In this document: piece after piece, positions 13,096 through 25,625 of the stretch
Layout: each line of letters starts with the position of its first letter
How positions within the stretch are numbered: position 1 is the first letter of the stretch
Origin: Melioribacteraceae bacterium
GTDB lineage: Bacteria; Bacteroidota; Ignavibacteria; Ignavibacteriales; Melioribacteraceae
DNA length: 64,000 bases
Assembly (NCBI GenBank): GCA_026983955.1
Contig: JALSTB010000013.1
Location: 17,720-81,719, forward strand
Direction of reading: 5' to 3'
Program-made: the position numbers and the translations under genes
Notes under the pieces: generated by a model
The model's input: the letters and a program-made list of their open reading frames with translations, nothing else
What the model was told of the DNA's origin: nothing
The model's database searches: none

Positions 13096-15318
13096 TTAAA
13101 TTTTCGCTCTTTTCAATCTTAAAGAATTGCTGATTACCGAAACCGAACTCATGGACATTGCACCTGCGCCAATCATCGGGTTTAGAAAACCTAGTGCCGC
13201 AAACGGAATACCAATCGAATTGTAAACAAACGCCCAAAACAAATTTTGTTTGATTGTTTTAATGGTTGCATGCGATAATTTTATAGCGGAAACCACCGCA
13301 GTCAGTTCACCTTTTATTAATGTAATATCCGATGATTCTATGGCAACATCGGTACCGGTACCAATGGCAATACCAAGATCGGCAGCAGCGAGAGCGGGAG
13401 AATCGTTAATGCCGTCGCCAACCATTGCAACAATTTCACCTTTACTTTGTAAATCTTTTATTATTTTTGATTTCCCGCCCGGTAATACTCCGGCATAATA
13501 ATTATCGAGTCCAACTTTTTCAGCTATGCTTTTGGCGGTTATTTCGTTGTCGCCGGTAACCATATAAACTTTAATACCCATTTGTTTTAATTTTTTAATG
13601 GCTCCGGCAGATGAGGATTTTACAGGATCGGCTATTCCGATAATACCGGCGAGCTTTCCATTGACCGCTACAAAAACAACGGATTTCCCTTCGGAGCTTA
13701 TTGCATTGTAAATCTCTTTTTTATCAATTGTTCGGATATTGTTATTTTCCAGGAAACTTCTGTTACCAATAAATAACTCGTAACCGTTCACTGTAGCGCC
13801 GATTCCGTGACCTTCAAAATTTTTAAAGTGGGAAATTTTTCCGGGTTCAATTTTTCTATCTTTACAATATCTTGTAATCGCTTCCGCAAGAGGATGTTCG
13901 GATCTGTTTTCTGCGGTAAATAATAAACTTAAAAAAGTATTACGGTCGATTCCGAATGTATGAATATCGGTAACCACAGGATTTCCTTCTGTTATAGTAC
14001 CGGTTTTGTCAAACACAACAGCGGTTATCTTGTGAGCTTTTTCGAGGCTTTCGCCGTTCTTAATTAAAATTCCGTTTTGTGCACCCAATCCGGTTCCAAC
14101 CATAATTGCCGTTGGGGTTGCAAGCCCCATTGCACAAGGACAAGCGATAATCATAACAGCGACAAAATTAATCAATGCCGTGTTGAACGATGATGTTTCC
14201 GGAATAATCAACCATCCGAAAAAAGTAAGCGCCGCAATACCGATCACCACGGGGATAAAAACCGCCGCTACTTTATCCGCTATTTTTTGAATTGGTGCCT
14301 TGCTTGCCTGGGCTTCTTCAACCAAGCGGATAATTTGTCCTAAAACGGAATTATCACCCAGTTCCGAAACTTCATATACAAAGGTACCGCTTTTGTTAAG
14401 TGTACCGCCGATAACCGCCGAACCTTTACTTTTTTCTACAGGTAAACTTTCACCTGTTAACATTGATTCGTCAACCGAAGAGTAGCCGTCTAAAATTTTT
14501 CCATCTGACGGAATTTTTTCTCCGGGTTTAACAATTACTTTATCCCCGGTTTTTAAATCATTTAAGTCAATCTTTTGTTCAACTCCACCAACTATCACTG
14601 TTGCTTGTTTCGGTTTCAGTTCCAGCAATTTTTTTATTGCAGAATTTGTTTTGCTTTTGGCTCTACTTTCCAGAACTTTGCCGAGAAGAATTAGTGAAAT
14701 GATTACAGTTGCCGTATCGAAATAAACATGAGAAACATTTTGTTCATTTAACCAAGAAGGGAAAAGGGTAATAACTGTACTGTAAATAAATGCAGCACCG
14801 GTTCCTATTGCTACAAGCGAATCCATGTTTACGGAAAAGTGTTTTATATTTGTCCAAAACGATGAATAAAATCGTTTACCTGAAATAAATATTACCGGCG
14901 TGGTTAGAATCAATAAAATTTTGTTTGTGTAATCATCTGAAAAAGTCCAAAATTCCCGGAAGAATTCAAAACCTCTTAGCATGCTTATAAGAAAGACGGG
15001 CAAAGTAAAGATTAATGCAAAGCGAAAGCTCTTTTTTAATTCGGAGTAATGCTCGTCTTGAAGGGATATTTCTTCGACGTTATCCGCTGCACTGCTTGTG
15101 CCGTCAAGCACTTGTTCGGTTCGTAATTTATAACCGTATTTTTCAACGGCTTTTGCCGCAACGGATAAATCGATATCCGATTTACTCTCTATTGTTACTT
15201 TCTCGGTTGCCAAATTTACGGAAACATTCTCTATGCCTTCGATTTTTCTAAGGGATTTTTCCACTCTTGCGGCACAGCTTGCACAAGTCATTCCTTCAAC
15301 CGGTAAATTGTATTTCAT
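13096..15318 (-). CDS. copA: Copper-translocating P1B-1-type ATPase
   Basis: 740 aa with an N-terminal HMA domain, [15 protein letters not shown]. It has the TM6 CPC motif ([13 protein letters not shown]), [18 protein letters not shown], the TM7 YN motif (FVYNSIGIP) and the TM8 MSxSS-like motif (AMSMSSVSV). Confidence 0.95.
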
Positions 15319-15341
15319 TTTATCAACGTGGTATTTTTTAA

Positions 15342-15542
15342 TTAATTAGCTACTTGGTAACCGGCTTCGGTAATAGCGTTGATTATTTGCTCTTCGGAAA
15401 TTTTATTTTCATCCCATTCAACTACAGCAGAGCCGATTTCAACTTCGTGTGAATAAACACCAAGTTCTTCCAGTTCCACTTCAACTGCTTTCACACAATG
15501 ATGGCAAGTCATTCCGTTAATCTTGAATTCTTTTTTTACCAT
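15342..15542 (-). CDS. copZ: CopZ-type copper chaperone (HMA domain)
   Basis: 66 aa with the motif [14 protein letters not shown]. It lies immediately upstream of copA on the same strand. Confidence 0.9.
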
Positions 15543-15758: not shown

Positions 15759-16637
15759 ATGACTCGACTTCAACACAAAATATATATATCGTTCTTCGTT
15801 CTTGTAACAATTGGTGTGACTGCATGGTTGATTTATTATGGTTATCCGTATTATTCACTTCCTGTTGAAGAACGATTTTTCTCACCTCTTCACAATCAAC
15901 TTAAACCCGGTGGATTTACCGGGCATGGAATCGGCATTATCGGTTCACTTTTGATGTTAATCGGCGTTGCCGTGTATATGATTAGAAAACGTGTAAAATA
16001 TTTTCACCGTTTCGGAATACTTAAACACTGGCTTGAATTTCATATTTTCTTATGCACGTTAGGTCCGATACTCATAGTTTTTCATACATCGTTCAAATTC
16101 GGCGGACTCGTTGCCGTTAGTTTTTGGAGTATGGTTGCAGTGTTTTTAAGCGGTATAGTCGGGCGGTTTATTTATGTAAGAATTCCCCGGACAATCGAAG
16201 GTGTGGAACTGGATTTGAGACAAGTCCAACAAATAAATGATGAGCTATCGGTGAAATTACGAAATTACTACAATGTCAAAGATGATATTTTACTTGAGAT
16301 TGAGAATATAACAAACAGAAGGCACAAGGGAACGCTCTCGGCAGCTAACATTTTTTTTATAATTGTTAAAGATTTTTTCATTAGAAGGAAAAACATCCGG
16401 ACGATAACAGGCAAACTTAAAAGTTCCGGGGTTTCCAAGAAAAAAATTGCAGAAATAAAATTGTTAGTAAAACAAAAAATGCTTTTAAACAACAGAATTG
16501 AATATCTAAGAGTACTTCAAAATATATTCAAGTTTTGGCATATCGTACATTTGCCGTTCGCCTTAATTATGTTGGTGATAATGATTATTCACATCGGTGT
16601 GGCAATTGCTTTTGGATACGTCTGGATATTCAATTAA
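15759..16637 (+). CDS. Polytopic membrane protein with two bis-His helices, putative di-heme b-type transmembrane cytochrome
   Basis: 292 aa with about 5 TM segments. The TM3 pair is H-IFLCTLGPILIVF-H and the last-TM pair is H-LPFALIMLVIMII-H, each with exactly 13 intervening residues. A Lys/Arg-rich helical loop of about 120 aa separates TM4 and TM5. Confidence 0.65.
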   Translation: MTRLQHKIYISFFVLVTIGVTAWLIYYGYPYYSLPVEERFFSPLHNQLKPGGFTGHGIGIIGSLLMLIGVAVYMIRKRVKYFHRFGILKHWLEFHIFLCTLGPILIVFHTSFKFGGLVAVSFWSMVAVFLSGIVGRFIYVRIPRTIEGVELDLRQVQQINDELSVKLRNYYNVKDDILLEIENITNRRHKGTLSAANIFFIIVKDFFIRRKNIRTITGKLKSSGVSKKKIAEIKLLVKQKMLLNNRIEYLRVLQNIFKFWHIVHLPFALIMLVIMIIHIGVAIAFGYVWIFN

Positions 16638-16813: not shown

Positions 16814-18142
16814 ATGGAAGTTTTATTAGAAAATATAATTATTTATGCACTTCTTGCCGTAATAATAGCCGGTGTATTTTACATATACCTCAAAACCCAT
16901 AAATACGAATCGGAAAAGAATATCCAAAAAATAAAGCGTGCCAAAGAATACGGTTTTCATGAACCGGTTTCACTGCATCCTGTAATAAATGAAGATATTT
17001 GTATCGGAAGCGGGGCTTGTGTTGTTGCGTGTCCGGAAAACGATATACTCGGCTTGGTTGACGGCAAAGGCAAATTAATTAATGCTTCCCATTGTGTTGG
17101 GCACGGTGCTTGCTTTCATGCTTGTCCGGTAGAAGCAATTACTTTGGTTATGGGCACCGAAAAAAGAGGAGTGGAATTGCCCCATGTAAGTTCCGAATAC
17201 GAAACAAACGTTAGAGGAATTTACATAGCCGGTGAATTAGGTGGTATGGGATTGATAAAAAATGCAATAGAGCAAGGGAAAAAAGCAGTCGACAATATTC
17301 ATAAATCGATTGAAAATAATAATGAAGCAAAATACGATGTGATAATTATTGGCGCAGGTCCTGCAGGAATTGCAGCTACACTTAGAGCAGCTGAATATAA
17401 TTTGAAATTTTTAACAATTGAACAGGACAGTATTGGCGGGACCGTATTTTCATTCCCGCGTGCTAAAGTTGTAATGACTTCACCGGTAGAAATACCGCTT
17501 TACGGGAAGGTGAAATTACATGAAACTTCAAAATCGGAGTTAATCGATTTATGGTCTGAAATTCTTGAAAAAAATAAAATTTCAATTAATGAAAATGAAA
17601 AAGTAAATGAAATAGTCAAATACGAGAAGTATTTTAAGGTAATTACAAACCAAGACGAATACACGGCTCAAAAAGTTTTATTGGCAATCGGGCGCAGAGG
17701 TTCACCCAGAAAATTAGGTGTGCCGGGTGAAAATTCGGAAAAGGTTTATTACAAATTGTTGGAACCGGAACTGATTCACAATAAAAAAATCCTGGTAGTT
17801 GGCGGTGGTGATTCCGCAATTGAATCGGCGCTGCTTTTAGCTGAGGAAGGTAATGAAGTTACTGTTTCTTACCGTTCGGATTCATTCAAAAGGTTAAAGC
17901 CCAAAAATTTCAAAAAGATTGAAGATGCAATAAAACTCAAACTGGTAAATGTTTTATACAATTCAACTGTGAAGGAAATTAAGCCTGATAAAGTTGTGTT
18001 AAATTTTAAAAACGGGTCGGTTGCCGAATTGGAAAACGATTTGGTTTATGTTTTCATTGGTGGTGAATTACCGAATAAATTTCTGGAAAAAATTGGAATA
18101 AAAATTACAAAGAAGTTCGGTGAAGCAATATTAAAACATTAA
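16814..18142 (+). CDS. Membrane-anchored 2x[4Fe-4S] ferredoxin domain fused to a TrxR-like FAD/NAD(P)H oxidoreductase (no redox CxxC)
   Basis: 442 aa with an N-terminal TM helix followed by a basic stretch. It has two cluster motifs, CIGSGACVVACP and CVGHGACFHACP. It has two dinucleotide folds, DVIIIGAGPAGIAA and ILVVGGGDSAIESA. It has no CATC-type disulfide. Confidence 0.85.
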   Translation: MEVLLENIIIYALLAVIIAGVFYIYLKTHKYESEKNIQKIKRAKEYGFHEPVSLHPVINEDICIGSGACVVACPENDILGLVDGKGKLINASHCVGHGACFHACPVEAITLVMGTEKRGVELPHVSSEYETNVRGIYIAGELGGMGLIKNAIEQGKKAVDNIHKSIENNNEAKYDVIIIGAGPAGIAATLRAAEYNLKFLTIEQDSIGGTVFSFPRAKVVMTSPVEIPLYGKVKLHETSKSELIDLWSEILEKNKISINENEKVNEIVKYEKYFKVITNQDEYTAQKVLLAIGRRGSPRKLGVPGENSEKVYYKLLEPELIHNKKILVVGGGDSAIESALLLAEEGNEVTVSYRSDSFKRLKPKNFKKIEDAIKLKLVNVLYNSTVKEIKPDKVVLNFKNGSVAELENDLVYVFIGGELPNKFLEKIGIKITKKFGEAILKH

Positions 18143-18156
18143 TCAAAATATTTGCT

Positions 18157-19722
18157 TTGGTCTTTACATTTGCCGTATGGGGAAATTTGTTTGCCCAAAT
18201 TTCTCCCGGTGATCTTGTTGCGGCTCATTCCGGGTTGGAAGGAATCAGCAATTGTACCAAATGCCATACACTGGGTAAAAGCTTGGATAATGCCAAATGC
18301 TTGAAATGCCATACTGAAATTGCCGGATTGATTAATACAAATCGCGGATTCCATGCAAATAAAAAGGTAGCCAAACAAAATTGTTGGAAATGCCACGGCG
18401 ATCATTTCGGAAGGAAATTTCAAATTATCCGTTTCAACAAAAAAACTTTTAATCATGTTGATGCAGGATATAAATTAAAAGGGGAACATGCAAAGGCCGG
18501 GTGTAATGACTGTCATAAACCTGAATTTATTAATGACAAAAAATTAAAGAATAGAAAAAAAACATATTTGGGGCTCAACACAGAATGCAAAACTTGCCAC
18601 GAAGACGTTCACCAATCGACGCTTGGGAATAATTGTGCCGGTTGCCACACCGAGGAGAAATTTAAACCGGCGGTAAAGTTCAATCATGATAACACAAATT
18701 ATAAATTAACCGGAGCTCACAAAAAAGTTGAGTGCAGAGGTTGCCACACCATTGCCACAAAAAACGGAAAGAAGTTTCAAAAATTTAACGATGTGGAATA
18801 TCAATCTTGCAAATCTTGTCACGAAGATTTCCATAAAGGCAAATTCGGAAACAAGTGCAGCTCTTGCCACACTACCGCCTCGTTCAGAAGGGTAAAAAAC
18901 ATGAGGTCATTTAATCACAGTAAAACAAATTTTCCTTTGGTTGGTAAACACAAACTGGTTGATTGTAAAACATGCCATAAAGGAAATTTGAGCTTCAAAC
19001 CTAAATACAAATTGTGTACGGACTGCCATTCCGATTACCATGAAGGTGAGTTTCAGGATGATGAAGATAACAGCGATTGTTCCGCATGTCATACCGAGAA
19101 AGGTTTCAGTCCCTCCACCTTTACCATTGAAAAACACAACAACACAACATTTAGATTAACGGATGCACACGAAGCATTGCCTTGTTATACTTGTCACCGT
19201 ACCGGCGATAAATGGCATTTTAAGATTGACGGTAAGTATTGTGTAAATTGCCATGAGAATATCCATCAATCTTCAATAAGTGAAAAATATTTTTCGGAGA
19301 AAAAATGTGAAAACTGCCATAATACGGTTACTTGGCAAAATATAACATTTAATCATGAACAAACACAATTTAAATTAACCGGCAAGCATCAAGAACAGAG
19401 ATGTTCCGCTTGTCATTTTAAAAGGGATGAAAAAAGTAATATTGTCCAGCATTTCAAAGATTTACAACCATATTGCAGTCAATGTCATAACGATGTTCAT
19501 GCCGGACAATTCGGAAGTGGCGAAGATGAAACTTGTAACCGCTGCCACACAACGGAGAATTGGGAACCGTCGTTATTCGACCATAACGAAACAAGATTTT
19601 CACTTGAGGGGGCACACGCCAATTTGGAATGTTCGCAATGTCATTTACCGGAAAAAAAGAAGGGCGTAGTGTTTATTCGTTACAAAATTGAGGATACGAG
19701 ATGTATAAGCTGTCATTCATAA
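18157..19722 (+). CDS. Multiheme c-type cytochrome, 20 CxxCH motifs
   Basis: I counted 20 CxxCH motifs in 521 aa. There is a repeating unit F-x-H-x3-F-x-L-x-G-x-H-x4-C-x2-CH ... C-x2-CH-x-D-x-H. The signal-peptide-like end is FAVWGNLFAQ. The true start may lie upstream at a non-canonical codon (see findings). Confidence 0.9.
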   Translation: MVFTFAVWGNLFAQISPGDLVAAHSGLEGISNCTKCHTLGKSLDNAKCLKCHTEIAGLINTNRGFHANKKVAKQNCWKCHGDHFGRKFQIIRFNKKTFNHVDAGYKLKGEHAKAGCNDCHKPEFINDKKLKNRKKTYLGLNTECKTCHEDVHQSTLGNNCAGCHTEEKFKPAVKFNHDNTNYKLTGAHKKVECRGCHTIATKNGKKFQKFNDVEYQSCKSCHEDFHKGKFGNKCSSCHTTASFRRVKNMRSFNHSKTNFPLVGKHKLVDCKTCHKGNLSFKPKYKLCTDCHSDYHEGEFQDDEDNSDCSACHTEKGFSPSTFTIEKHNNTTFRLTDAHEALPCYTCHRTGDKWHFKIDGKYCVNCHENIHQSSISEKYFSEKKCENCHNTVTWQNITFNHEQTQFKLTGKHQEQRCSACHFKRDEKSNIVQHFKDLQPYCSQCHNDVHAGQFGSGEDETCNRCHTTENWEPSLFDHNETRFSLEGAHANLECSQCHLPEKKKGVVFIRYKIEDTRCISCHS

Positions 19723-22079
19723 TTTTGTTCTTAATGTCCGGTATTCTTTATGCACAATCGCCGCACGGTGAAAATTTTAATTACGATTGTGCCGAATGCC
19801 ATTCGACCGATACTTGGAAAATAGATATCAAGAAATTGAAATTCGATCATTCAAAAACCGGTTTCGAACTTGCCGGTCAGCATGCTGTGCTTGATTGCCA
19901 ATCGTGTCATGAATCTCTCGATTTTGTAACAACCAAGAACAGATGTTTCGATTGTCATAACGATATTCACCAAAACACACTTGAAAAGGATTGTCAAAAA
20001 TGCCATAATTCAAACAATTGGTTGGTGGAGAATATTAATGACATTCATAATGCCGGACGTTTTCCTTTGCTTGGAGCACATTCGACCGCGGATTGCCAAC
20101 AATGCCACAAATCGATTGAAAATTTGGTGTTTGAGCAACTTGGAGTCGAATGTATAGATTGCCACTCCGGTGATTATATGAACGCTCAAAATCCCGATCA
20201 TGTGGCTGTCGGTTTTTCGAAGGACTGTGAACAATGTCATTCCGTTACGGATTTACAATGGAGTTCGGCTCAATTTGCACATGATTTTTTCCCGCTGACT
20301 TTAGGGCATGATATCGGTAATTGTTTTGCTTGCCATAGCACACAAGGTTTCGAAGGGTTGTCAACAGATTGTTATTCTTGTCATAAAGAAAATTTTAACA
20401 ATGCGGTTGATCCAAATCATGTAAACTCTAATTTTTCACATGATTGCGTACAGTGCCATACAACCAATCCGGGTTGGAAACCTGCCGATTTCAAAAATCA
20501 CGACCAAGTATTTGCTTTACTAGGCGCACACGATAAAATTCGAAATGATTGTGCAAAATGTCATTCTTCCGGATATTCCGGAACACCAACTGATTGTTAC
20601 AGTTGCCATGAAACCCAGTACAATCAAACAAGTAATCCCGATCATTCCGCAACTGGTTTCGGTACGGATTGCGAATCTTGCCATAATGTAAATGCGTGGA
20701 GTCCTGCAACGTTCGATCATGACAACCAATATTTCCCGATATACTCGGGTAAACATAATAACGAATGGAATAATTGTTCGGATTGCCATACGAATCAAAA
20801 CGATTACAGTGTTTTCTCGTGTATAACATGCCATGAACATTCGCAAAGCAAAATGGATGACGAACACAAAGAAGTTTCCGGTTATGTTTATGAAAGTCAA
20901 GCATGTTTTTCATGCCATCCGCAAGGCGACAAGGAAGGGGCAATAGATCATTCAAAAACGGCATTTCCGTTAACCGGCGCACATCAAAATGCAGAATGTT
21001 CACAATGTCATGCAAACGGTTATGCGAACACACCGTTGGAATGTTACTCATGCCACGATGACAAATACACAAGTGCGGCAAATCCGAAACATACTGATGC
21101 CGGTATATCGACGAAGTGTGAAGATTGTCATACAACTACAGCGTGGAAACCGTCAACTTTTAATCACGGCAGTACTGGATTTGAGTTGGCGGGCGGACAT
21201 CAATTGCCGCAATGTTCGAGTTGTCATCAAGGGAGCACATCCGGAACTTCTCCGCTATGTTACAGTTGTCATCAAGCCCAGTACAACAATGCAGAAAATC
21301 ATGTAGCACAAAATTATCCAACTACGTGCGAACAATGTCACAATACGACGAAATGGGATGATGCGGATTTTGATCATAACAACACGAATTTCCCGTTGAC
21401 CGGAGCACATGTAAATACGGATTGTTCGTCATGTCACACGAACGGTTATTCGGGAACTCCGTCCGATTGTAATTCGTGTCATAATGCAAATTACCAGAAC
21501 ACAACGAATCCAAGTCACACAAATTTGGGATTATCGAGACAGTGCGAGACTTGTCACACAACAGAACCTGGTTGGAAGCCAGCGGAATTTCCTGTGCACA
21601 ACGATTATTATGTGCTGAACGGAGCACATGCGTCAATTTCCGGTGACTGTGCGACGTGCCATAACGGAGATTACAACAACACACCGAACACATGTTACGG
21701 TTGTCATCAAGCGGATTATGAAGGTACGAACGATCCACCGCATCAAAGTACGGGATTCGGAACCGATTGCGAAACATGTCATACCGAAACTGCGTGGAAA
21801 CCTTCGACGTTCGATCATGACAACCAATATTTCCCGATATACTCGGGTAAACATAATAACGAATGGAATAATTGTTCGGATTGCCATACGAATCAAAACG
21901 ATTACAGTGTTTTCTCGTGTATAACATGCCATGAACATTCGCAAAGCAAAATGGATGACGAACACAAAGAAGTTTCCGGTTATGTTTATGAAAGTACCGC
22001 TTGTTATGACTGTCATCCGAATGGCAAAGAAGAAGGCGGAATTCCTTCTCCCGCTCATATTAAAAGAATGAGGTACTGA
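19701..22079 (+). CDS. Giant multiheme c-type cytochrome, 31 CxxCH motifs, modular
   Basis: I counted 31 CxxCH motifs in 792 aa. The signal peptide is MYKLSFIILFLMSGILYAQ, with no lipobox Cys. A GAGGA RBS is present. The start overlaps the upstream cytochrome gene by 22 nt. The stop overlaps the next gene's ATG. Confidence 0.95.
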   Translation: MYKLSFIILFLMSGILYAQSPHGENFNYDCAECHSTDTWKIDIKKLKFDHSKTGFELAGQHAVLDCQSCHESLDFVTTKNRCFDCHNDIHQNTLEKDCQKCHNSNNWLVENINDIHNAGRFPLLGAHSTADCQQCHKSIENLVFEQLGVECIDCHSGDYMNAQNPDHVAVGFSKDCEQCHSVTDLQWSSAQFAHDFFPLTLGHDIGNCFACHSTQGFEGLSTDCYSCHKENFNNAVDPNHVNSNFSHDCVQCHTTNPGWKPADFKNHDQVFALLGAHDKIRNDCAKCHSSGYSGTPTDCYSCHETQYNQTSNPDHSATGFGTDCESCHNVNAWSPATFDHDNQYFPIYSGKHNNEWNNCSDCHTNQNDYSVFSCITCHEHSQSKMDDEHKEVSGYVYESQACFSCHPQGDKEGAIDHSKTAFPLTGAHQNAECSQCHANGYANTPLECYSCHDDKYTSAANPKHTDAGISTKCEDCHTTTAWKPSTFNHGSTGFELAGGHQLPQCSSCHQGSTSGTSPLCYSCHQAQYNNAENHVAQNYPTTCEQCHNTTKWDDADFDHNNTNFPLTGAHVNTDCSSCHTNGYSGTPSDCNSCHNANYQNTTNPSHTNLGLSRQCETCHTTEPGWKPAEFPVHNDYYVLNGAHASISGDCATCHNGDYNNTPNTCYGCHQADYEGTNDPPHQSTGFGTDCETCHTETAWKPSTFDHDNQYFPIYSGKHNNEWNNCSDCHTNQNDYSVFSCITCHEHSQSKMDDEHKEVSGYVYESTACYDCHPNGKEEGGIPSPAHIKRMRY
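20709..20897 (+). repeat. Copy 1 of a 189-bp perfect intragenic direct repeat
   Basis: Base-by-base comparison with 21807..21995 shows identity over 189 bp. The offset is 1098 bp (366 codons, in frame). It encodes TFDHDNQYFPIYSGKHNNEWNNCSDCHTNQNDYSVFSCITCHEHSQSKMDDEHKEVSGYVYES. Confidence 0.9.
21807..21995 (+). repeat. Copy 2 of the 189-bp perfect intragenic direct repeat
   Basis: Identical to 20709..20897. The flanking homologous sequence is diverged, for example CESCHNVNAWSPA versus CETCHTETAWKPS upstream and QACFSCHPQG versus TACYDCHPNG downstream. Confidence 0.9.
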
Positions 22080-23686
22080 TGAAAAAAATACTGGCTTGTT
22101 TTTTTCTGATTACAATAACCATATCCGGTCAAAATGCGGGTAAAGTAAAACTCGTTGGAAAAGTCGATTACATTTCGGCACAATATTATTACATTAACTT
22201 TACGAACACGGAAAGAATTAACATTGGCGATACTTTGTTCATCAAGTACCGGAAAAAATATTATCCCAAACTTATTGTTGAAAAAAAATCTTCGAGAACA
22301 TGCGCAACAAAATTGTTAGGCAAAAAAATAAAAAAGGGCAGGAGAGTTTATGCTTTTGTTGACAAATTAAACGTAACCCGGGAAAAAACACAGCAAACGA
22401 AAAAATTAAAAGTATTAACGGCTGAAAACGGCTCACCGAAGATGAACACCGGTAAGGCGAAAAAATTTGTTAAAGTTAATCCGGAGTATTACGGTAAATA
22501 CAGTCTTTCAGGTTATTCCAATTTTTCGAATGTTATTGCACAAAGCGATTATCATCATTGGAGACATTCTTTATCTTTTTATGCAAACAACATTAAAGGC
22601 AGCAAACTTTCTTTTTCTTCATACATAATGTTCAGGTATAGAAGCGATAAATGGAGTTACGTTCACCGTCATTTGGGAAGTGCATTGAAAATTTACGATT
22701 TCTCAGTCCGGTACGACATCAATAAAACAACAAAATTAAGCTTCGGTAGGAAAATAAACAGAAAATTATCGAATATCGGAGCGATTGACGGACTGCAAAT
22801 GGAAACGGAATACAAGGGATTTTTTATCGGGGGTATTTTGGGTTCGAGACCGAATATTCAAGACTACGGTTATAATTTTAAATTGCTTGAAATGGGAGTT
22901 TACATAAGCAGCGAAGATTCCTTGGGCTACGGTAAAATGACAAATACTTTATCGGTTGTGCAACAAATGAATGATAACACGACCGACCGGAGATTCTTTT
23001 ATTTTCAACATTCCAGTCACATTTTAAAATCGCTTCATCTTTTCTTTTCTTCGGAAATAGATTTTTTCAAACATTATCATAATACAACTTCACACGATCC
23101 GTATTTGACAAACATTTTTGTTTCCCTCCGATATTCACCGACACGTTGGATATCTTTCAATACTTCCTACGATGCAAGAAAAAATGTAATTTATTACGAA
23201 ACATACAAAAGTCATCTTGACCGATTGTTGCAAAATGCAATGCGGCAAGGGTTCAGGTTGCGGGTAAACTTAAAGCCGGTTAAATTTATTTTCGCATCGG
23301 TTTATGCGGGATACAGATTCAGAAAAGATGACAAGGTTCCCACGAAAAATCTTGGGCTTTCTCTAACCCATTCAAGGATTCCTTTCTTACATTTATCGGC
23401 AAATTTAAGTTATATCAATTTGAAGACGAATTATCTTAACGGTGAAATTTTCGGATTGCGTTTGTCAAAAGATTTGTTCGACGGTTTATTGTATGCAACG
23501 CTTGGGTTCCGGAATTTGAATTACGAATTCACTTCATTCCAACAAAGTTTAAACCGGAACACGGCTTTACTGGATTTATCCTTCCGCTTGACAAGGAAAT
23601 TATCTTTTTCAATTAGTTACGAAGGAACGTTTGAAGAGAAATCTTCTTACTCGAATTTATTTTTCAATATTACACAAAGATTTTAA
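22079..23686 (+). CDS. Outer-membrane beta-barrel protein translationally coupled to the cytochrome genes (putative porin of a porin-cytochrome complex)
   Basis: 535 aa with signal peptide MKKILACFFLITITISGQNAG. An N-terminal soluble domain of about 110 aa and a Lys-rich linker come first. Then follow about 400 aa of alternating-polarity strands rich in Y/F/R/S. The C-terminal residue is Phe (FFNITQRF). The start codon overlaps the upstream stop (TGATG). Confidence 0.8.
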   Translation: MKKILACFFLITITISGQNAGKVKLVGKVDYISAQYYYINFTNTERINIGDTLFIKYRKKYYPKLIVEKKSSRTCATKLLGKKIKKGRRVYAFVDKLNVTREKTQQTKKLKVLTAENGSPKMNTGKAKKFVKVNPEYYGKYSLSGYSNFSNVIAQSDYHHWRHSLSFYANNIKGSKLSFSSYIMFRYRSDKWSYVHRHLGSALKIYDFSVRYDINKTTKLSFGRKINRKLSNIGAIDGLQMETEYKGFFIGGILGSRPNIQDYGYNFKLLEMGVYISSEDSLGYGKMTNTLSVVQQMNDNTTDRRFFYFQHSSHILKSLHLFFSSEIDFFKHYHNTTSHDPYLTNIFVSLRYSPTRWISFNTSYDARKNVIYYETYKSHLDRLLQNAMRQGFRLRVNLKPVKFIFASVYAGYRFRKDDKVPTKNLGLSLTHSRIPFLHLSANLSYINLKTNYLNGEIFGLRLSKDLFDGLLYATLGFRNLNYEFTSFQQSLNRNTALLDLSFRLTRKLSFSISYEGTFEEKSSYSNLFFNITQRF

Positions 23687-24270
23687 TTGACCGAATCGAT
23701 AAACTTGCGGGGCAGTTTCATATTGTTTTTGAATTCGCTTGCAGTTAAACCGGTCACTTGCTTGAACTGCCTCGATAAATGCTGTACGGAGCTGTAACCG
23801 AGCCGGTATGCGATTTCACTTAAAGTAAGTTCGCCGTATTTCAGAAGCTCCTTTGCTTTTTCTATTTTTTGGAGTATTATGAAATGTTCGATTGTAATAC
23901 CTTCCGTTTTGGAAAACAATGAGCTTAAATAATTATAATCTTTATGAAACGTTTTGCTGAGGTGCTTGGAAAAATTAAGTTTTTCCAAATCTTCGTCCTT
24001 GTATTTTTGAATTAAACTGATTATCTCGGTCTTTATGGAATCAATAAGTTTTGCTTTTGTATCTTCTATCAACTCGAAACCTTCTTTGGAAAGGACGTCT
24101 TTAATAGCTTCAACATCCAAACCGCTTTTACTTTGTGCCAATTTTACTTGTCCGAGTTCGATATGCAAAACCTCATATCCTAATTTTTGCAATTCTTCCC
24201 GTACCACCTTTATACAGCGGGGACAAACCATATTTTTTATATGTAAAACCGTTTCTTCCATAATCATCAC
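23683..24270 (-). CDS. AraC-family transcription regulator with N-terminal heavy-metal-associated (HMA) domain
   Basis: 195 aa with an HMA-like N-terminus, LHIKNMVCPRCIKVVREEL. The C-terminal AraC-type HTH is LSEIAYRLGYSSVQHLSRQFKQVTGLTASEF. The start is ambiguous among three N-terminal Met codons. Confidence 0.85.
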   Translation of the reverse strand: MMIMEETVLHIKNMVCPRCIKVVREELQKLGYEVLHIELGQVKLAQSKSGLDVEAIKDVLSKEGFELIEDTKAKLIDSIKTEIISLIQKYKDEDLEKLNFSKHLSKTFHKDYNYLSSLFSKTEGITIEHFIILQKIEKAKELLKYGELTLSEIAYRLGYSSVQHLSRQFKQVTGLTASEFKNNMKLPRKFIDSVN

Positions 24271-25013: not shown

Positions 25014-25625
25014 ATGAAATATAAATTAATTTTTGTTTATCTTGCCGTATTTGCATTTATTTTGTTGGCGATAGTTTTTTTCGATAGCAGGAATAATAAT
25101 AGCGAACGTACAAAGAAAATACCCGCGGACATCCAACAAAAAGAAATGCCGCAAGATGCAATACATAAAGGACTTGGAAATCCGGCAGCCGGACAACCGT
25201 CGCGCGAGAATGTTTTGGCCTCTGTAAAAGAAAAAATGAAAAAACTGGAAGAGGCAATAGCCAATAATCCGGACGATACCGTAAAAATCCGTGAATATGC
25301 CAATTTCCTGCTAGCTGCTCACAAACCTGAAAAAGCTTTGAAGTATTATAATATGATTCTCGATAAAAATCCCGAAAGGACTGATATTCTGCTTTCGGTA
25401 ACTTCAATTTATTTCAACAAAGGTGATTACAAGAAAGCCGAAGAAACCACAAGGCAAATACTCCGTTATGATAAAAACAATCTCGAAGCACAATATAATT
25501 TGGGCGTAATTTTTGCAGTAACCGGTAAAAAGAGTGAAGCTGAAATCATATGGAAAGATTTGATTGAAAAACATCCGGGTACGGAAGTGGCCAACTTGGC
25601 TAAAAGTGCATTACAAAAATTATAA
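25014..25625 (+). CDS. Membrane-anchored TPR-repeat protein
   Basis: 203 aa with an N-terminal TM helix. It has TPR-like repeats (ALKYYNMILDKNPERTD, YFNKGDYKKAEE, AQYNLGVIFAVTGKKSEA). Confidence 0.75.
   Translation: MKYKLIFVYLAVFAFILLAIVFFDSRNNNSERTKKIPADIQQKEMPQDAIHKGLGNPAAGQPSRENVLASVKEKMKKLEEAIANNPDDTVKIREYANFLLAAHKPEKALKYYNMILDKNPERTDILLSVTSIYFNKGDYKKAEETTRQILRYDKNNLEAQYNLGVIFAVTGKKSEAEIIWKDLIEKHPGTEVANLAKSALQKL

Follow-up and report, generated by a model that had tools for sequence, protein, structure and literature searches.

A predicted two-haem inner-membrane protein in a putative electron-conduit gene cluster of a Melioribacteraceae bacterium

We find that an open reading frame in a 64,000-nucleotide stretch of DNA from a Melioribacteraceae bacterium (GCA_026983955.1, contig JALSTB010000013.1, positions 17,720 to 81,719; hereafter the window) encodes a predicted five-helix inner-membrane protein whose four conserved histidines most likely hold two stacked b-type haems. 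The protein probably passes electrons from a neighbouring NAD(P)H-type iron-sulfur flavoprotein to giant multihaem cytochromes leading out of the cell, although haem binding is inferred from sequence alone. The class itself is not new, since He et al. 2017 (Front Microbiol 8:1584, PMC5566968) described the "conserved inner membrane protein" (IMP) of the putative PCC3 and PCC4 porin-cytochrome c clusters with the same motifs, and proposed from genomes that it carries two b haems; this proposal still stands only as a prediction. What our analysis adds is the near-universal pairing of the IMP with a membrane-anchored flavoprotein in the loci examined, and the replacement of this flavoprotein by a non-homologous enzyme in a deep sister clade, which favours a split, NOX-like, quinone-independent route from NAD(P)H to the outside.

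A predicted five-helix protein with two conserved histidine pairs

The preliminary description of this locus had reported a membrane protein with two histidine pairs at 13-residue spacing, on TM3 and on the last TM helix, and we confirmed this observation. The ORF begins with ATG, encodes 292 amino acids and contains H95-IFLCTLGPILIVF-H109 and H264-LPFALIMLVIMII-H278, with exactly 13 residues between the histidines of each pair. Hydropathy and the secondary structure of an AlphaFold model placed five TM helices at about residues 9-29, 53-75, 88-110, 116-138 and 258-285, so that the pairs lie on TM3 and TM5. Charge distribution agreed with an N-in topology, since loop 75-95 has 6 K+R and the helical insert at about 142-257 has 25 K+R against 12 D+E, while the two predicted outer loops have 2 and 1 K+R. 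The gene is a single copy in its own genome, and its family comprises more than 6,400 proteins (3,451 representatives at 50% identity). The features of the gene and its neighbours are as follows.

15759..16637 (+): gene for the 292-aa five-TM protein (PCC3-type IMP), the predicted di-haem b subunit
16020..16088 (+): TM3 (residues 88-110) with W91-x3-H95-x13-H109; H95 codon 16041-16043, H109 codon 16083-16085
16104..16172 (+): TM4 (residues 116-138) with the S131-G132-I-V-G135 (SGxxG) motif at 16149-16163
16182..16529 (+): predicted cytoplasmic helical insert (residues about 142-257), with helices at 153-170, 175-185, 195-222 and 227-284, the last running continuously into TM5
16530..16613 (+): TM5 (residues 258-285) with W260-H261-x2-H264-x13-H278; H264 codon 16548-16550, H278 codon 16590-16592
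16814..18142 (+): partner gene for a 442-aa flavoprotein with an N-terminal TM anchor (residues about 8-26), a di-cluster ferredoxin domain (residues 63-104, 17000-17125) and a TrxR-like FAD/NAD(P) body without a CxxC
18157..19722 (+): 521-aa multihaem cytochrome c with 20 CxxCH and hits to Cytochrome_C7 and c3 families, presumed periplasmic like the PCC3 periplasmic MHC
19701..22079 (+): 792-aa multihaem cytochrome c with 31 CxxCH and Cytochrome_C7 and MtrC/MtrF-like domains, presumed outer or extracellular
22079..23686 (+): 535-aa protein with no Pfam hit, conserved at the end of the cluster and presumed an outer-membrane porin only by analogy with PCC3
25014..25625 (+): 203-aa membrane-anchored TPR protein, a displaced accessory gene of the cluster

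We next questioned whether the histidine pairs could have arisen by chance. With 11 His in 292 residues, at least two H-x13-H pairs occurred in 4.5% of 200,000 composition-preserving shuffles, and 4 of 55 long frames in the window have at least two such pairs, indicating that the bare pattern in one sequence is not significant. It becomes significant through conservation: in 110 relatives of 26-81% identity, H109, H264, H278, W260 and G135 were present in 110, H95 in 109 and H261 in 101, whereas H6, H45, H56, H83, H90 and H189 were variable. W91 was found in 103, S131 in 108 and G132 in 109 of the same 110 sequences. The four histidines are the most conserved residues of this very large family.

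To determine how the helices pack, we applied mean-field DCA to 390 sequences (Meff 283). The top couplings gave self-consistent antiparallel registers for TM2-TM3, TM3-TM4, TM4-TM5 and TM2-TM5, which places TM2 to TM5 in one four-helix bundle. Three TM3-TM5 pairs fell among the top 17 (97-274, 99-265 and 96-271), with offsets of 166-177 compared with 169 for the His pairs, a register that puts H95 level with H264 and H109 level with H278.

The preliminary description had also suggested that the Lys/Arg-rich insert could dock the downstream flavoprotein. This is not supported by conservation. Although the insert keeps its length (112-130 aa) and its positive charge (median net charge +7) across the 110 relatives, it is the least conserved part of the protein (0.26 majority fraction), while the short cytoplasmic loops 76-91 and 139-152 are much better conserved.

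Possible relationship to two-haem cytochrome b families

In length, predicted topology and motifs, the protein matches the published IMP: about 300 aa, five TM helices, SGxxG on TM4 and Wx3Hx13H on both TM3 and TM5. This assignment rests on these shared features and on gene context, and not on sequence similarity to the type IMPs of Sideroxydans lithotrophicus ES-1 and Leptothrix cholodnii SP-6; a homology search from a distant high-GC member of the family returned only 7 hits, with no named proteobacterial relative among them. The published clusters encode a periplasmic cytochrome (median 21 haems), a second, very large cytochrome (median 34) and a porin; here, cytochromes with 20 and 31 CxxCH follow on the same strand, and the last gene, which encodes the 535-aa protein, hit no Pfam family.

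No Pfam or NCBIfam model reached its cut-off for the window protein, and the NCBIfam scan gave nothing relevant. The best Pfam match was DUF4405 (PF14358), at E 0.066 and 14.2 bits against a curated cut-off of 26.7, over residues 258-281. However, when 55 relatives were scanned, 35, 23 and 11 gave sub-threshold hits to DUF4405 (best E 5.7e-6), Ferric_reduct (PF01794; best E 1.5e-4) and Ni_hydr_CYTB, respectively. The Ferric_reduct hits lay over TM2-TM3, and those inspected scored 14.6-20.6 bits against a cut-off of 28 and covered profile positions 1-61; the window protein itself had no hit to this family at E<=1. hhalign against 26 DUF4405 proteins aligned the Wx3Hx13H of TM3 with the same motif in DUF4405 (E 0.001, probability 21%). 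A DUF4405 protein has been purified and shown to bind haem b, with four central His as the most conserved residues (preprint 10.1101/2024.03.13.584918, which concerns DUF4405 and FezC cytochromes). DUF4405 systems are, however, associated with ApbE flavinylation and extracytosolic flavoproteins and not with multihaem cytochromes and porins, and the window's genome has two genuine DUF4405 proteins elsewhere.

Structural and profile comparisons did not demonstrate kinship at the level of fold. Foldseek searches of the PDB gave nothing significant, either with a mediocre model (pLDDT 75) or with a high-confidence one (pLDDT 93.8, pTM 0.85), for which the best E was 0.91 and no NOX, STEAP or cytochrome b appeared among the 50 listed matches. 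This is not strong negative evidence, since Foldseek is weak on all-helical membrane bundles and the 115-aa insert dominates the model. PDB searches with the single sequence and with a 55-sequence profile returned only coiled-coil noise on the insert and nothing for the membrane part. hhalign against alignments of MsrQ-type and longer FRD proteins from the same phylum was likewise not significant, although these alignments held only 5-7 sequences and were too thin.

The closest architectural parallel is the ferric-reductase domain of NOX, FRE and STEAP enzymes and the bacterial MsrQ-Fre pair. In those proteins His pairs 12-13 residues apart on TM3 and TM5 bind two stacked b haems, the N-terminus is cytoplasmic, the TM2-TM3 loop is basic, and electrons come from a cytoplasmic NAD(P)H flavoenzyme and leave on the outer face; MsrQ, like this protein, is a separate polypeptide served by a separate flavin reductase. 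The window protein differs in having five helices instead of six (the sixth may be supplied by the flavoprotein's N-terminal anchor, by inference), a 115-aa insert between TM4 and TM5, a TrxR-like dehydrogenase with two Fe-S clusters in place of an FNR-like one, and a presumed multihaem cytochrome acceptor in place of O2, Fe(III) chelate or MsrP.

Gene neighbourhood and flavoprotein partners

Since the gene neighbourhood might indicate the electron donor, we examined the closest 80 genome loci, which came from Ignavibacteriota and Bacteroidota. In 79 of the 80, the IMP gene sits in one cluster with the TrxR-type FeS flavoprotein, which often starts 3-12 nt after the IMP. Wherever the contig extends far enough, the two cytochromes follow, and in most such loci a homologue of the 535-aa protein follows the second cytochrome. 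The window's flavoprotein matched Pyr_redox_3 (1e-47) and Fer4 families. It has only six Cys, all invariant, plus an invariant His97, and an N-out TM anchor followed by a basic stretch. Its Cx2(S/T)x2Cx3CP and Cx2Hx2Cx3CP motifs predict a [3Fe-4S] cluster and a His-ligated [4Fe-4S] cluster. The 203-aa TPR protein, which matched TPR families, is 37% identical (E 1e-40) to the gene lying between the IMP and the flavoprotein in one of the 80 loci (L003); that gene lies between the two in 21 of 80 loci and nearby in 4 more.

We then scanned metagenomes with a 7-sequence alignment, a 22-sequence one having been too divergent for this purpose, and examined 80 loci around a distant clade. Of these, 35 carry a non-homologous FNR-type flavoprotein (FAD_binding_6 + NAD_binding_1 + Fer2) directly upstream of or overlapping the IMP, with N-terminal TM segments in 15 of 16 checked. 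A further 24 have the TrxR type, 3 with adequate flanks (L202, L203 and L211) have none, and 18 are too short to judge, such that 59 of 62 informative loci carry a flavoprotein. On the IMP tree, the FNR-partnered sequences form one side of a single branch (SH-like support 99). The partner swap is a single event on the tree and so provides only two independent associations. One 418-aa protein (P0180) looked like an IMP-flavoprotein fusion, but it consists of IMP residues 1-224 joined to the last third of the flavoprotein and is probably a deletion or assembly artefact.

The IMP gene is divergent from copZ (15342-15542, minus strand) across a 216-nt spacer, as the preliminary description had noted for copZ-copA, so we considered whether the histidines could instead bind Cu or Fe in a metal transporter or sensor. 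The window carries a large copper/silver resistance island upstream, and the cluster is flanked by an AraC regulator (HTH_18/HTH_AraC hits). However, cop genes are near the IMP in only 5 of 80 loci, a lineage-specific arrangement that says nothing about function, and in three of those AraC sits with copZ and not at the far end of the conduit, indicating that the conduit is simply inserted into a cop locus here. The conserved neighbours are redox proteins, family-level similarity is to two-haem cytochromes, and i/i+14 His pairs on two helices at two membrane depths fit haem ligation and not a single ion site. We thus regard a copper-linked function as highly unlikely and the copZ-copA adjacency as incidental. 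A thiol-disulfide relay of DsbD/CcdA type with a TrxR-like partner was also rejected, because the IMP has no conserved Cys and the lack of a CxxC in the flavoprotein rules out thiol chemistry.

A proposed route for electrons and its alternatives

The preliminary description had read the protein as a di-haem b transmembrane wire of FRD/cytochrome b type coupled to the downstream FeS flavoprotein, and our analyses support this interpretation. It survived every computational test we could run, including two that had been set beforehand as grounds for rejecting it, namely conservation of the four histidines in homologues and adjacency of the helices that carry them. We hold the following explanation with moderate confidence. 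The protein would be the inner-membrane electron-transfer subunit of a PCC3-type porin-cytochrome conduit, in which H95 and H264 ligate one b haem near the cytoplasmic face and H109 and H278 a second near the periplasmic face. Electrons would pass from NAD(P)H to FAD, two Fe-S clusters and the cytoplasmic haem of the bundle, cross the membrane haem to haem, and leave to the 20-haem cytochrome, probably at the well-conserved periplasmic loop 28-55, before moving through the 31-haem cytochrome and the presumed porin to an extracellular acceptor. In this view, the IMP supplies five helices and ends outside, while the flavoprotein starts outside with one helix and continues into a cytoplasmic dehydrogenase, so that together they resemble a NOX/FRE enzyme split after TM5 with Fe-S clusters added. 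Such a route would need no quinone and pump no protons and would be helped by the membrane potential, and so it would act as an electron sink for a fermenting or anaerobic heterotroph and not as an energy-conserving site.

Our data establish the motifs and their conservation, the topology prediction, the coupling between helices, the gene cluster with its conservation, and the existence of two alternative flavoprotein partners. In contrast, haem binding, the direction of electron flow, NAD(P)H as donor, physical contact between the subunits and the physiological role are all inferred. No biochemical evidence exists for haem in any member of this family, and the literature still calls PCC3 "functionally unverified".

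The published model for the family differs in that the IMP is a quinone-active di-haem cytochrome b, like cytochrome b of bc1 or HydC/FdnI-type subunits, which exchanges electrons with the menaquinone pool and links it to the periplasmic multihaem cytochrome; the flavoprotein would then be an accessory or an alternative input. The weak hits of 11 of 55 relatives to Ni_hydr_CYTB, a quinone-reactive family, are consistent with this possibility, as are the three loci without a flavoprotein and the proteobacterial PCC3 clusters, which are described without one, so that the IMP can apparently work with another donor or acceptor, possibly quinones. However, all hits to quinone-reactive families are below their cut-offs, no quinone-site motif has been identified, and the near-constant presence of an NAD(P)-type flavoprotein, often with overlapping or closely spaced genes and replaced by a non-homologous enzyme of the same chemistry in the sister clade, is hard to explain if quinol were the donor. 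We therefore consider this alternative possible but unlikely.

Inward electron uptake from Fe(II), a cathode or a partner cell, with delivery to the flavoprotein to reduce NAD(P)+ or another cytoplasmic acceptor, appears very unlikely. PCC3 was discovered in Fe(II)-oxidising bacteria, the inner-membrane component of one PCC3 copy is up-regulated in iron-oxidising Sideroxydans CL21, and haem wires are intrinsically reversible. On thermodynamic grounds, however, moving electrons inward works against the membrane potential, and reaching NAD(P)+ from Fe(II) is strongly uphill without a coupling device, none of which is visible in a five-TM protein without conserved protonatable channels. Moreover, the hosts here are Ignavibacteriota and Bacteroidota heterotrophs and not lithoautotrophs.

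The published model is quinone-active and inward (Fe(II) oxidation), and its examples are mostly Proteobacteria; the main text of He et al. 2017 mentions neither Bacteroidetes/Ignavibacteria nor FAD or ferredoxin, and NADH only once in another context. Our literature searches for an NAD(P)H-fed porin-cytochrome cluster in Bacteroidota or Ignavibacteria found nothing beyond general reports of porin-cytochrome genes in Ignavibacteria. It is about as likely as not that the IMP and its flavoprotein form a previously unrecognised, quinone-independent "split NOX with Fe-S clusters" that sends electrons from cytoplasmic NAD(P)H directly into a trans-envelope conduit of about 51 haems. This module, found in roughly a tenth of sampled genomes of the window's GTDB phylum (loci from Ignavibacteria- and Bacteroidota-type organisms), would exist in two deep clades using non-homologous NAD(P)H dehydrogenases (TrxR-type with two Fe-S clusters, or FNR-type with 2Fe-2S).

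Every characterised extracellular electron-transfer pathway of Gram-negative bacteria starts from the quinone pool, through CymA, ImcH or CbcL. CymA of Shewanella and ImcH, CbcL and CbcBA of Geobacter connect cytoplasmic-membrane metabolism to periplasmic multihaem cytochromes of a porin-cytochrome conduit, the same position in the pathway as proposed here, but they are quinol dehydrogenases that carry c-type haems, or HydC-like b haems fused to c-type domains, whereas the present module has no CxxCH and is tied to an NAD(P)-type flavoprotein. If it really takes electrons from NAD(P)H through Fe-S clusters and two b haems, it would be a different and simpler entry point, and would give the PCC3 inner membrane protein a concrete biochemistry. 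As a compact two-gene NAD(P)H-to-periplasm wire, it could also be useful for bioelectrochemical engineering. Being non-energy-conserving and driven by the membrane potential, it could let abundant sediment, soil and bioreactor fermenters (Ignavibacteria, Bacteroidales, Prolixibacteraceae and Saprospiraceae) dump reducing equivalents on minerals, humics or electrodes, and would thereby give fermentative anaerobes an extracellular electron sink that bypasses the respiratory chain.

Position and conservation of the histidine pairs

We first asked whether the two histidine pairs reported for this membrane protein in the preliminary description are present at the spacing claimed. The ORF at 15759-16637 (+) is real and encodes 292 aa, and it contains H95-IFLCTLGPILIVF-H109 and H264-LPFALIMLVIMII-H278, each with 13 intervening residues, so the observation is confirmed. 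Hydropathy analysis and two AlphaFold runs gave five membrane helices at about residues 9-29, 53-75, 88-110, 116-138 and 258-285, while a helical segment at about 142-257 ends in a helix that runs continuously into TM5. The His pairs therefore sit on TM3 and TM5. Basic residues were found in the N-terminus, in loop 75-95 and in the insert between TM4 and TM5 (25 K+R against 12 D+E), whereas the other two loops are nearly uncharged. This gives a predicted N-in topology, with H95 and H264 near the cytoplasmic face and H109 and H278 near the periplasmic face.

Since the protein has 11 His in 292 residues, we determined how often the pattern would arise by chance. Two H-x13-H pairs appeared in 4.5% of shuffles, and three other long frames of the window also have two or more such pairs, so the bare pattern is not improbable and its significance comes from conservation. 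The protein belongs to a very large unannotated family: more than 6,400 proteins were found by a word-seeded search, all labelled "hypothetical" and without precomputed Pfam domains, and a profile search of 1.84 billion cluster representatives gave 3,451 representatives at E<=1e-3. In 23 close relatives, seven His are invariant. In 55 representatives of 27-41% identity, only nine columns are invariant, and four of them are H95, H109, H264 and H278. The same four histidines stood out in a wider set of 110 sequences (26-81% identity), in which the remaining His of the window protein vary freely. Loss of the histidines among homologues had been named beforehand as grounds for rejecting the di-haem reading, but the four histidines are conserved.

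Conservation of motif residues in 110 sequences of 26-81% identity
H109, H264, H278, W260 and G135: 110/110
H95: 109/110 (one Tyr)
G132: 109/110
S131: 108/110
W91: 103/110
H261: 101/110

Relation to known proteins and coupling of the His-bearing helices

We next compared the protein with a previously described class, the inner membrane protein (IMP) discussed by He et al. 2017 (PMC5566968) for PCC3-type porin-cytochrome clusters. The defining features of the IMP are a length of about 300 aa with five TM helices, SGxxG on TM4, and two Wx3Hx13H motifs on TM3 and TM5. That paper compares the IMP with the FRD domain of NOX/FRE and with cytochrome b, and it proposes two b haems and a quinone-active role. 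The window protein has all three motifs in the right helices. In the cluster, the published median haem counts are 21 and 34, and the two cytochromes of the window have 20 and 31 CxxCH, while the 535-aa protein presumed to be the porin gave no Pfam hit. The di-haem idea is therefore a rediscovery of a published prediction, and a 2023 pangenome paper and a 2025 preprint still describe PCC3 as predicted and "functionally unverified". The main text of He et al. does not mention Bacteroidetes, Ignavibacteria, FAD or ferredoxin, and it mentions NADH only once, in another context.

To relate the protein to characterised cytochromes, we scanned it against Pfam and NCBIfam, but no model passed its cut-off, the best hit being DUF4405 at E 0.066 over residues 258-281. 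Scanning 55 diverse relatives individually gave a consistent picture, in which three families recurred and no others did.

Pfam families recurring among 55 diverse relatives (relatives with a hit; best E)
DUF4405: 35; 5.7e-6
Ferric_reduct: 23; 1.5e-4
Ni_hydr_CYTB: 11; 4.1e-4

These three families share one Pfam clan of two-haem cytochromes. The Ferric_reduct hits cover TM2-TM3 against profile positions 1-61, while the DUF4405 hits cover TM3 or TM5 against the Wx3Hx13H helix of that profile. A DUF4405 protein and the related FezC have been purified and shown to bind haem b (preprint 10.1101/2024.03.13.584918). In genomes of one family in our sample (f18; for example genome G030, contig C14, 65468-65758; G011, C28, 23520-23813; and G038, C133, 25835-26116), short proteins of about 195 aa match only IMP profile positions 62-157 (TM2-TM4; E 1e-12 to 1e-16), and in several genomes they lie within 1-3 kb of genuine DUF4405 genes. 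This hints at a link between the two families, or these proteins could correspond to the "shorter IMPs" mentioned by He et al. 2017. Outside the window, the organism's own genome also encodes two proteins that pass the DUF4405 cut-off (72 and 32 bits; contig C174, 24783-24983, and contig C55, 16357-16536), so it has further candidate b-type membrane cytochromes unrelated to this cluster.

At the fold level, the evidence was negative or uninformative. Although AlphaFold with a 110-sequence alignment gave a model with pLDDT 93.8 and pTM 0.85, Foldseek found nothing in the PDB better than E 0.91, and PDB sequence searches were also empty. We therefore consider the protein a separate family that is probably a remote member of the two-haem cytochrome b superfamily, and not a member of PF01794 or PF14358.

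To test whether the His-bearing helices are neighbours, we ran a mean-field DCA on 390 family sequences (Meff 283). The strongest couplings gave self-consistent registers.

Strongest couplings between transmembrane helices (orientation; coupled positions)
TM2-TM3: antiparallel; 69/70-99
TM3-TM4: antiparallel; 107-122, 110-118, 107-129
TM4-TM5: antiparallel; 121-275, 138-262, 118-275
TM2-TM5: antiparallel; 69-268, 74-265, 63-279, 67-272
TM3-TM5: parallel; 97-274, 99-265, 96-271 (ranks 7, 14 and 17)

The TM3-TM5 offsets are 166-177, against 169 for H95/H264 and H109/H278, and about 0.3 TM3-TM5 pairs would be expected among 17 random pairs. Although this result is supportive and not decisive with this Meff, it is the pattern of a four-helix bundle (ring 2-3-4-5) in which TM3 and TM5 face each other across the core at matching depths, which is the arrangement used by cytochrome b and FRD domains to sandwich two haems.

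Gene neighbourhood and flavoprotein partners

We then examined the genes around the IMP. Downstream on the same strand lie the following genes:
a gene for a 442-aa protein with a predicted N-out TM anchor, a di-cluster ferredoxin domain (residues 63-104, window 17000-17125) and a TrxR-like FAD/NAD(P) body without CxxC
a gene for a cytochrome with 20 CxxCH
a gene for a cytochrome with 31 CxxCH
a gene for a 535-aa protein with no Pfam hit

No terminator-like site was found in the 176-nt spacer between the IMP and flavoprotein genes. The ferredoxin domain of the flavoprotein has only six Cys, in the motifs Cx2(S/T)x2Cx3CP and Cx2Hx2Cx3CP. The six Cys and His97 are invariant in 77 orthologues, and position 66 is Ser (48) or Thr (28), suggesting a [3Fe-4S] cluster plus a His-ligated [4Fe-4S] cluster instead of a standard 2x[4Fe-4S]. 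A distant homologue at locus L082 has a complete CxxCxxCxxxCP first motif but keeps the His in the second.

In the closest 80 loci from one-genome-per-species contigs (Melioribacteraceae, Ignavibacteriaceae, Bacteroidales, Prolixibacteraceae, Saprospiraceae, Chitinophagales and a Chlorobiota MAG), 79 carry the flavoprotein in the cluster, and the exception is a contig that ends inside the IMP gene. The two cytochromes follow wherever the contig extends far enough, and a homologue of the 535-aa protein usually follows them. In many Bacteroidota, the flavoprotein starts 3-12 nt after the IMP. Gene order is nevertheless variable: in loci L186, L192, L213 and L021 the TrxR-type flavoprotein lies after the cytochromes and the homologue of the 535-aa protein instead of directly after the IMP, and in L082 the order is cytochrome, a 550-aa protein in the porin position, a 264-aa protein, IMP, then flavoprotein. 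Full-length IMP genes occur in about 31 of 301 sampled genomes of the phylum and once in the window's own genome. One protein from the representative library (P0180, 418 aa) is an apparent fusion of IMP residues 1-224 with the last third of the flavoprotein (Pyr_redox hits at residues 286-412), although it is most likely an internal deletion or a mis-assembly and not a natural single-chain version.

A 203-aa membrane-anchored TPR protein encoded at 25014-25625 (+) is the orthologue (37% identity, E 1e-40) of a gene that lies between the IMP and the flavoprotein in 21 of 80 related loci and near the cluster in 4 more. In this window it has been displaced to beyond the AraC and cyclophilin genes, and it is probably an accessory or assembly factor of the conduit.

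Since the IMP gene lies close to copZ-copA in this window, we considered whether the protein could have a copper-related, non-haem role. However, cop genes adjoin the IMP in only 5 of 80 loci. In loci L002, L004 and L054, the AraC regulator lies directly beside copZ-copA, whereas in the window (positions 13096-15542 and 23683-24270) and in locus L001 the whole five-gene conduit sits between copZ and that regulator. The conduit therefore looks inserted into a cop locus, the regulator probably belongs to copZA, and a copper-related role is very unlikely.

We next questioned whether more distant IMPs have the same partner. A distant family member (P0221) is preceded, with a 2-nt spacer, by a 429-aa protein with FAD_binding_6, NAD_binding_1 and Fer2 domains and N-terminal hydrophobic segments, and it is followed by a cytochrome with at least 34 haems. 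A metagenome scan seeded from that clade returned 80 loci.

Flavoprotein arrangements in 80 metagenome loci
FNR-type flavoprotein directly upstream or overlapping: 35
TrxR-type flavoprotein: 24 (21 immediately downstream, 3 after the 535-aa protein)
No flavoprotein despite adequate flanks: 3
Flanks too short to judge: 18

Thus, 59 of 62 informative loci have one or the other flavoprotein. Fifteen of 16 FNR-type partners checked have a hydrophobic N-terminal segment. The FNR-type (FAD_binding_6 + NAD_binding_1 + Fer2) partners of this sister clade (L084, 1522-2811, and those upstream of the IMP in L136, L140, L145, L147, L148 and L152) carry two N-terminal hydrophobic segments with recurring His-containing motifs ("TTIH...", "H..WF..CER"), which might contribute to membrane anchoring or even to cofactor binding. 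On a FastTree tree of 135 IMPs, the FNR-partnered sequences form one side of a single branch (SH-like support 99), and only 3 label changes are needed, against about 30 in shuffles.

The IMP has therefore kept a membrane-tethered NAD(P)-flavin-FeS dehydrogenase as neighbour across a replacement by an unrelated enzyme of the same chemistry. Although the replacement is a single event and should not be over-counted, this is the strongest argument that the cytoplasmic redox partner of the IMP is such a dehydrogenase and not the quinone pool. The quinone-active model of He et al. remains possible, if doubtful, since three loci, as well as the published proteobacterial PCC3 clusters, lack a flavoprotein.

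Proposed electron path and role

Taken together, these data support the interpretation of the protein as a di-haem b transmembrane wire, although the two-haem prediction was already published for the family in 2017. The conservation of the motifs, the couplings between the helices and the pairing with two flavoprotein types were established directly from sequence and gene order, while haem binding, electron transfer and the physiological role are inferred without biochemical evidence. We propose that electrons would pass from NAD(P)H to FAD, two Fe-S clusters, a haem b at H95/H264, a haem b at H109/H278, the 20-haem cytochrome, and the 31-haem cytochrome and presumed porin, and then to an external acceptor. 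In this view, the IMP ends on the outside, while the flavoprotein begins on the outside with one helix and continues into a cytoplasmic dehydrogenase, so that the pair would topologically be a NOX/FRE enzyme split after TM5.

The best-conserved extramembrane parts are the periplasmic loop 28-55 (five positions at 90% or more), a candidate cytochrome docking site, and the short cytoplasmic loops 76-91 and 139-152. In contrast, the 115-aa insert keeps its size (112-130 aa) and positive charge (median +7) but not its sequence. We therefore doubt the earlier suggestion that the insert is the specific docking surface for the flavoprotein, although it could be a spacer or an electrostatic platform.

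Inward electron uptake would be thermodynamically unattractive for an NAD(P)-linked partner, and we regard it as improbable. Outward electron flow would be favoured by the membrane potential and would pump nothing, and we infer that the likely role is redox balancing in anaerobic heterotrophs. What these analyses add to the 2017 prediction is the near-obligate, twice-realised pairing of the IMP with NAD(P)-type FeS flavoproteins in Ignavibacteriota, Bacteroidota and a sister clade, which would make this conduit NAD(P)H-fed and probably quinone-independent, in contrast with the quinone-active role previously proposed for the family.
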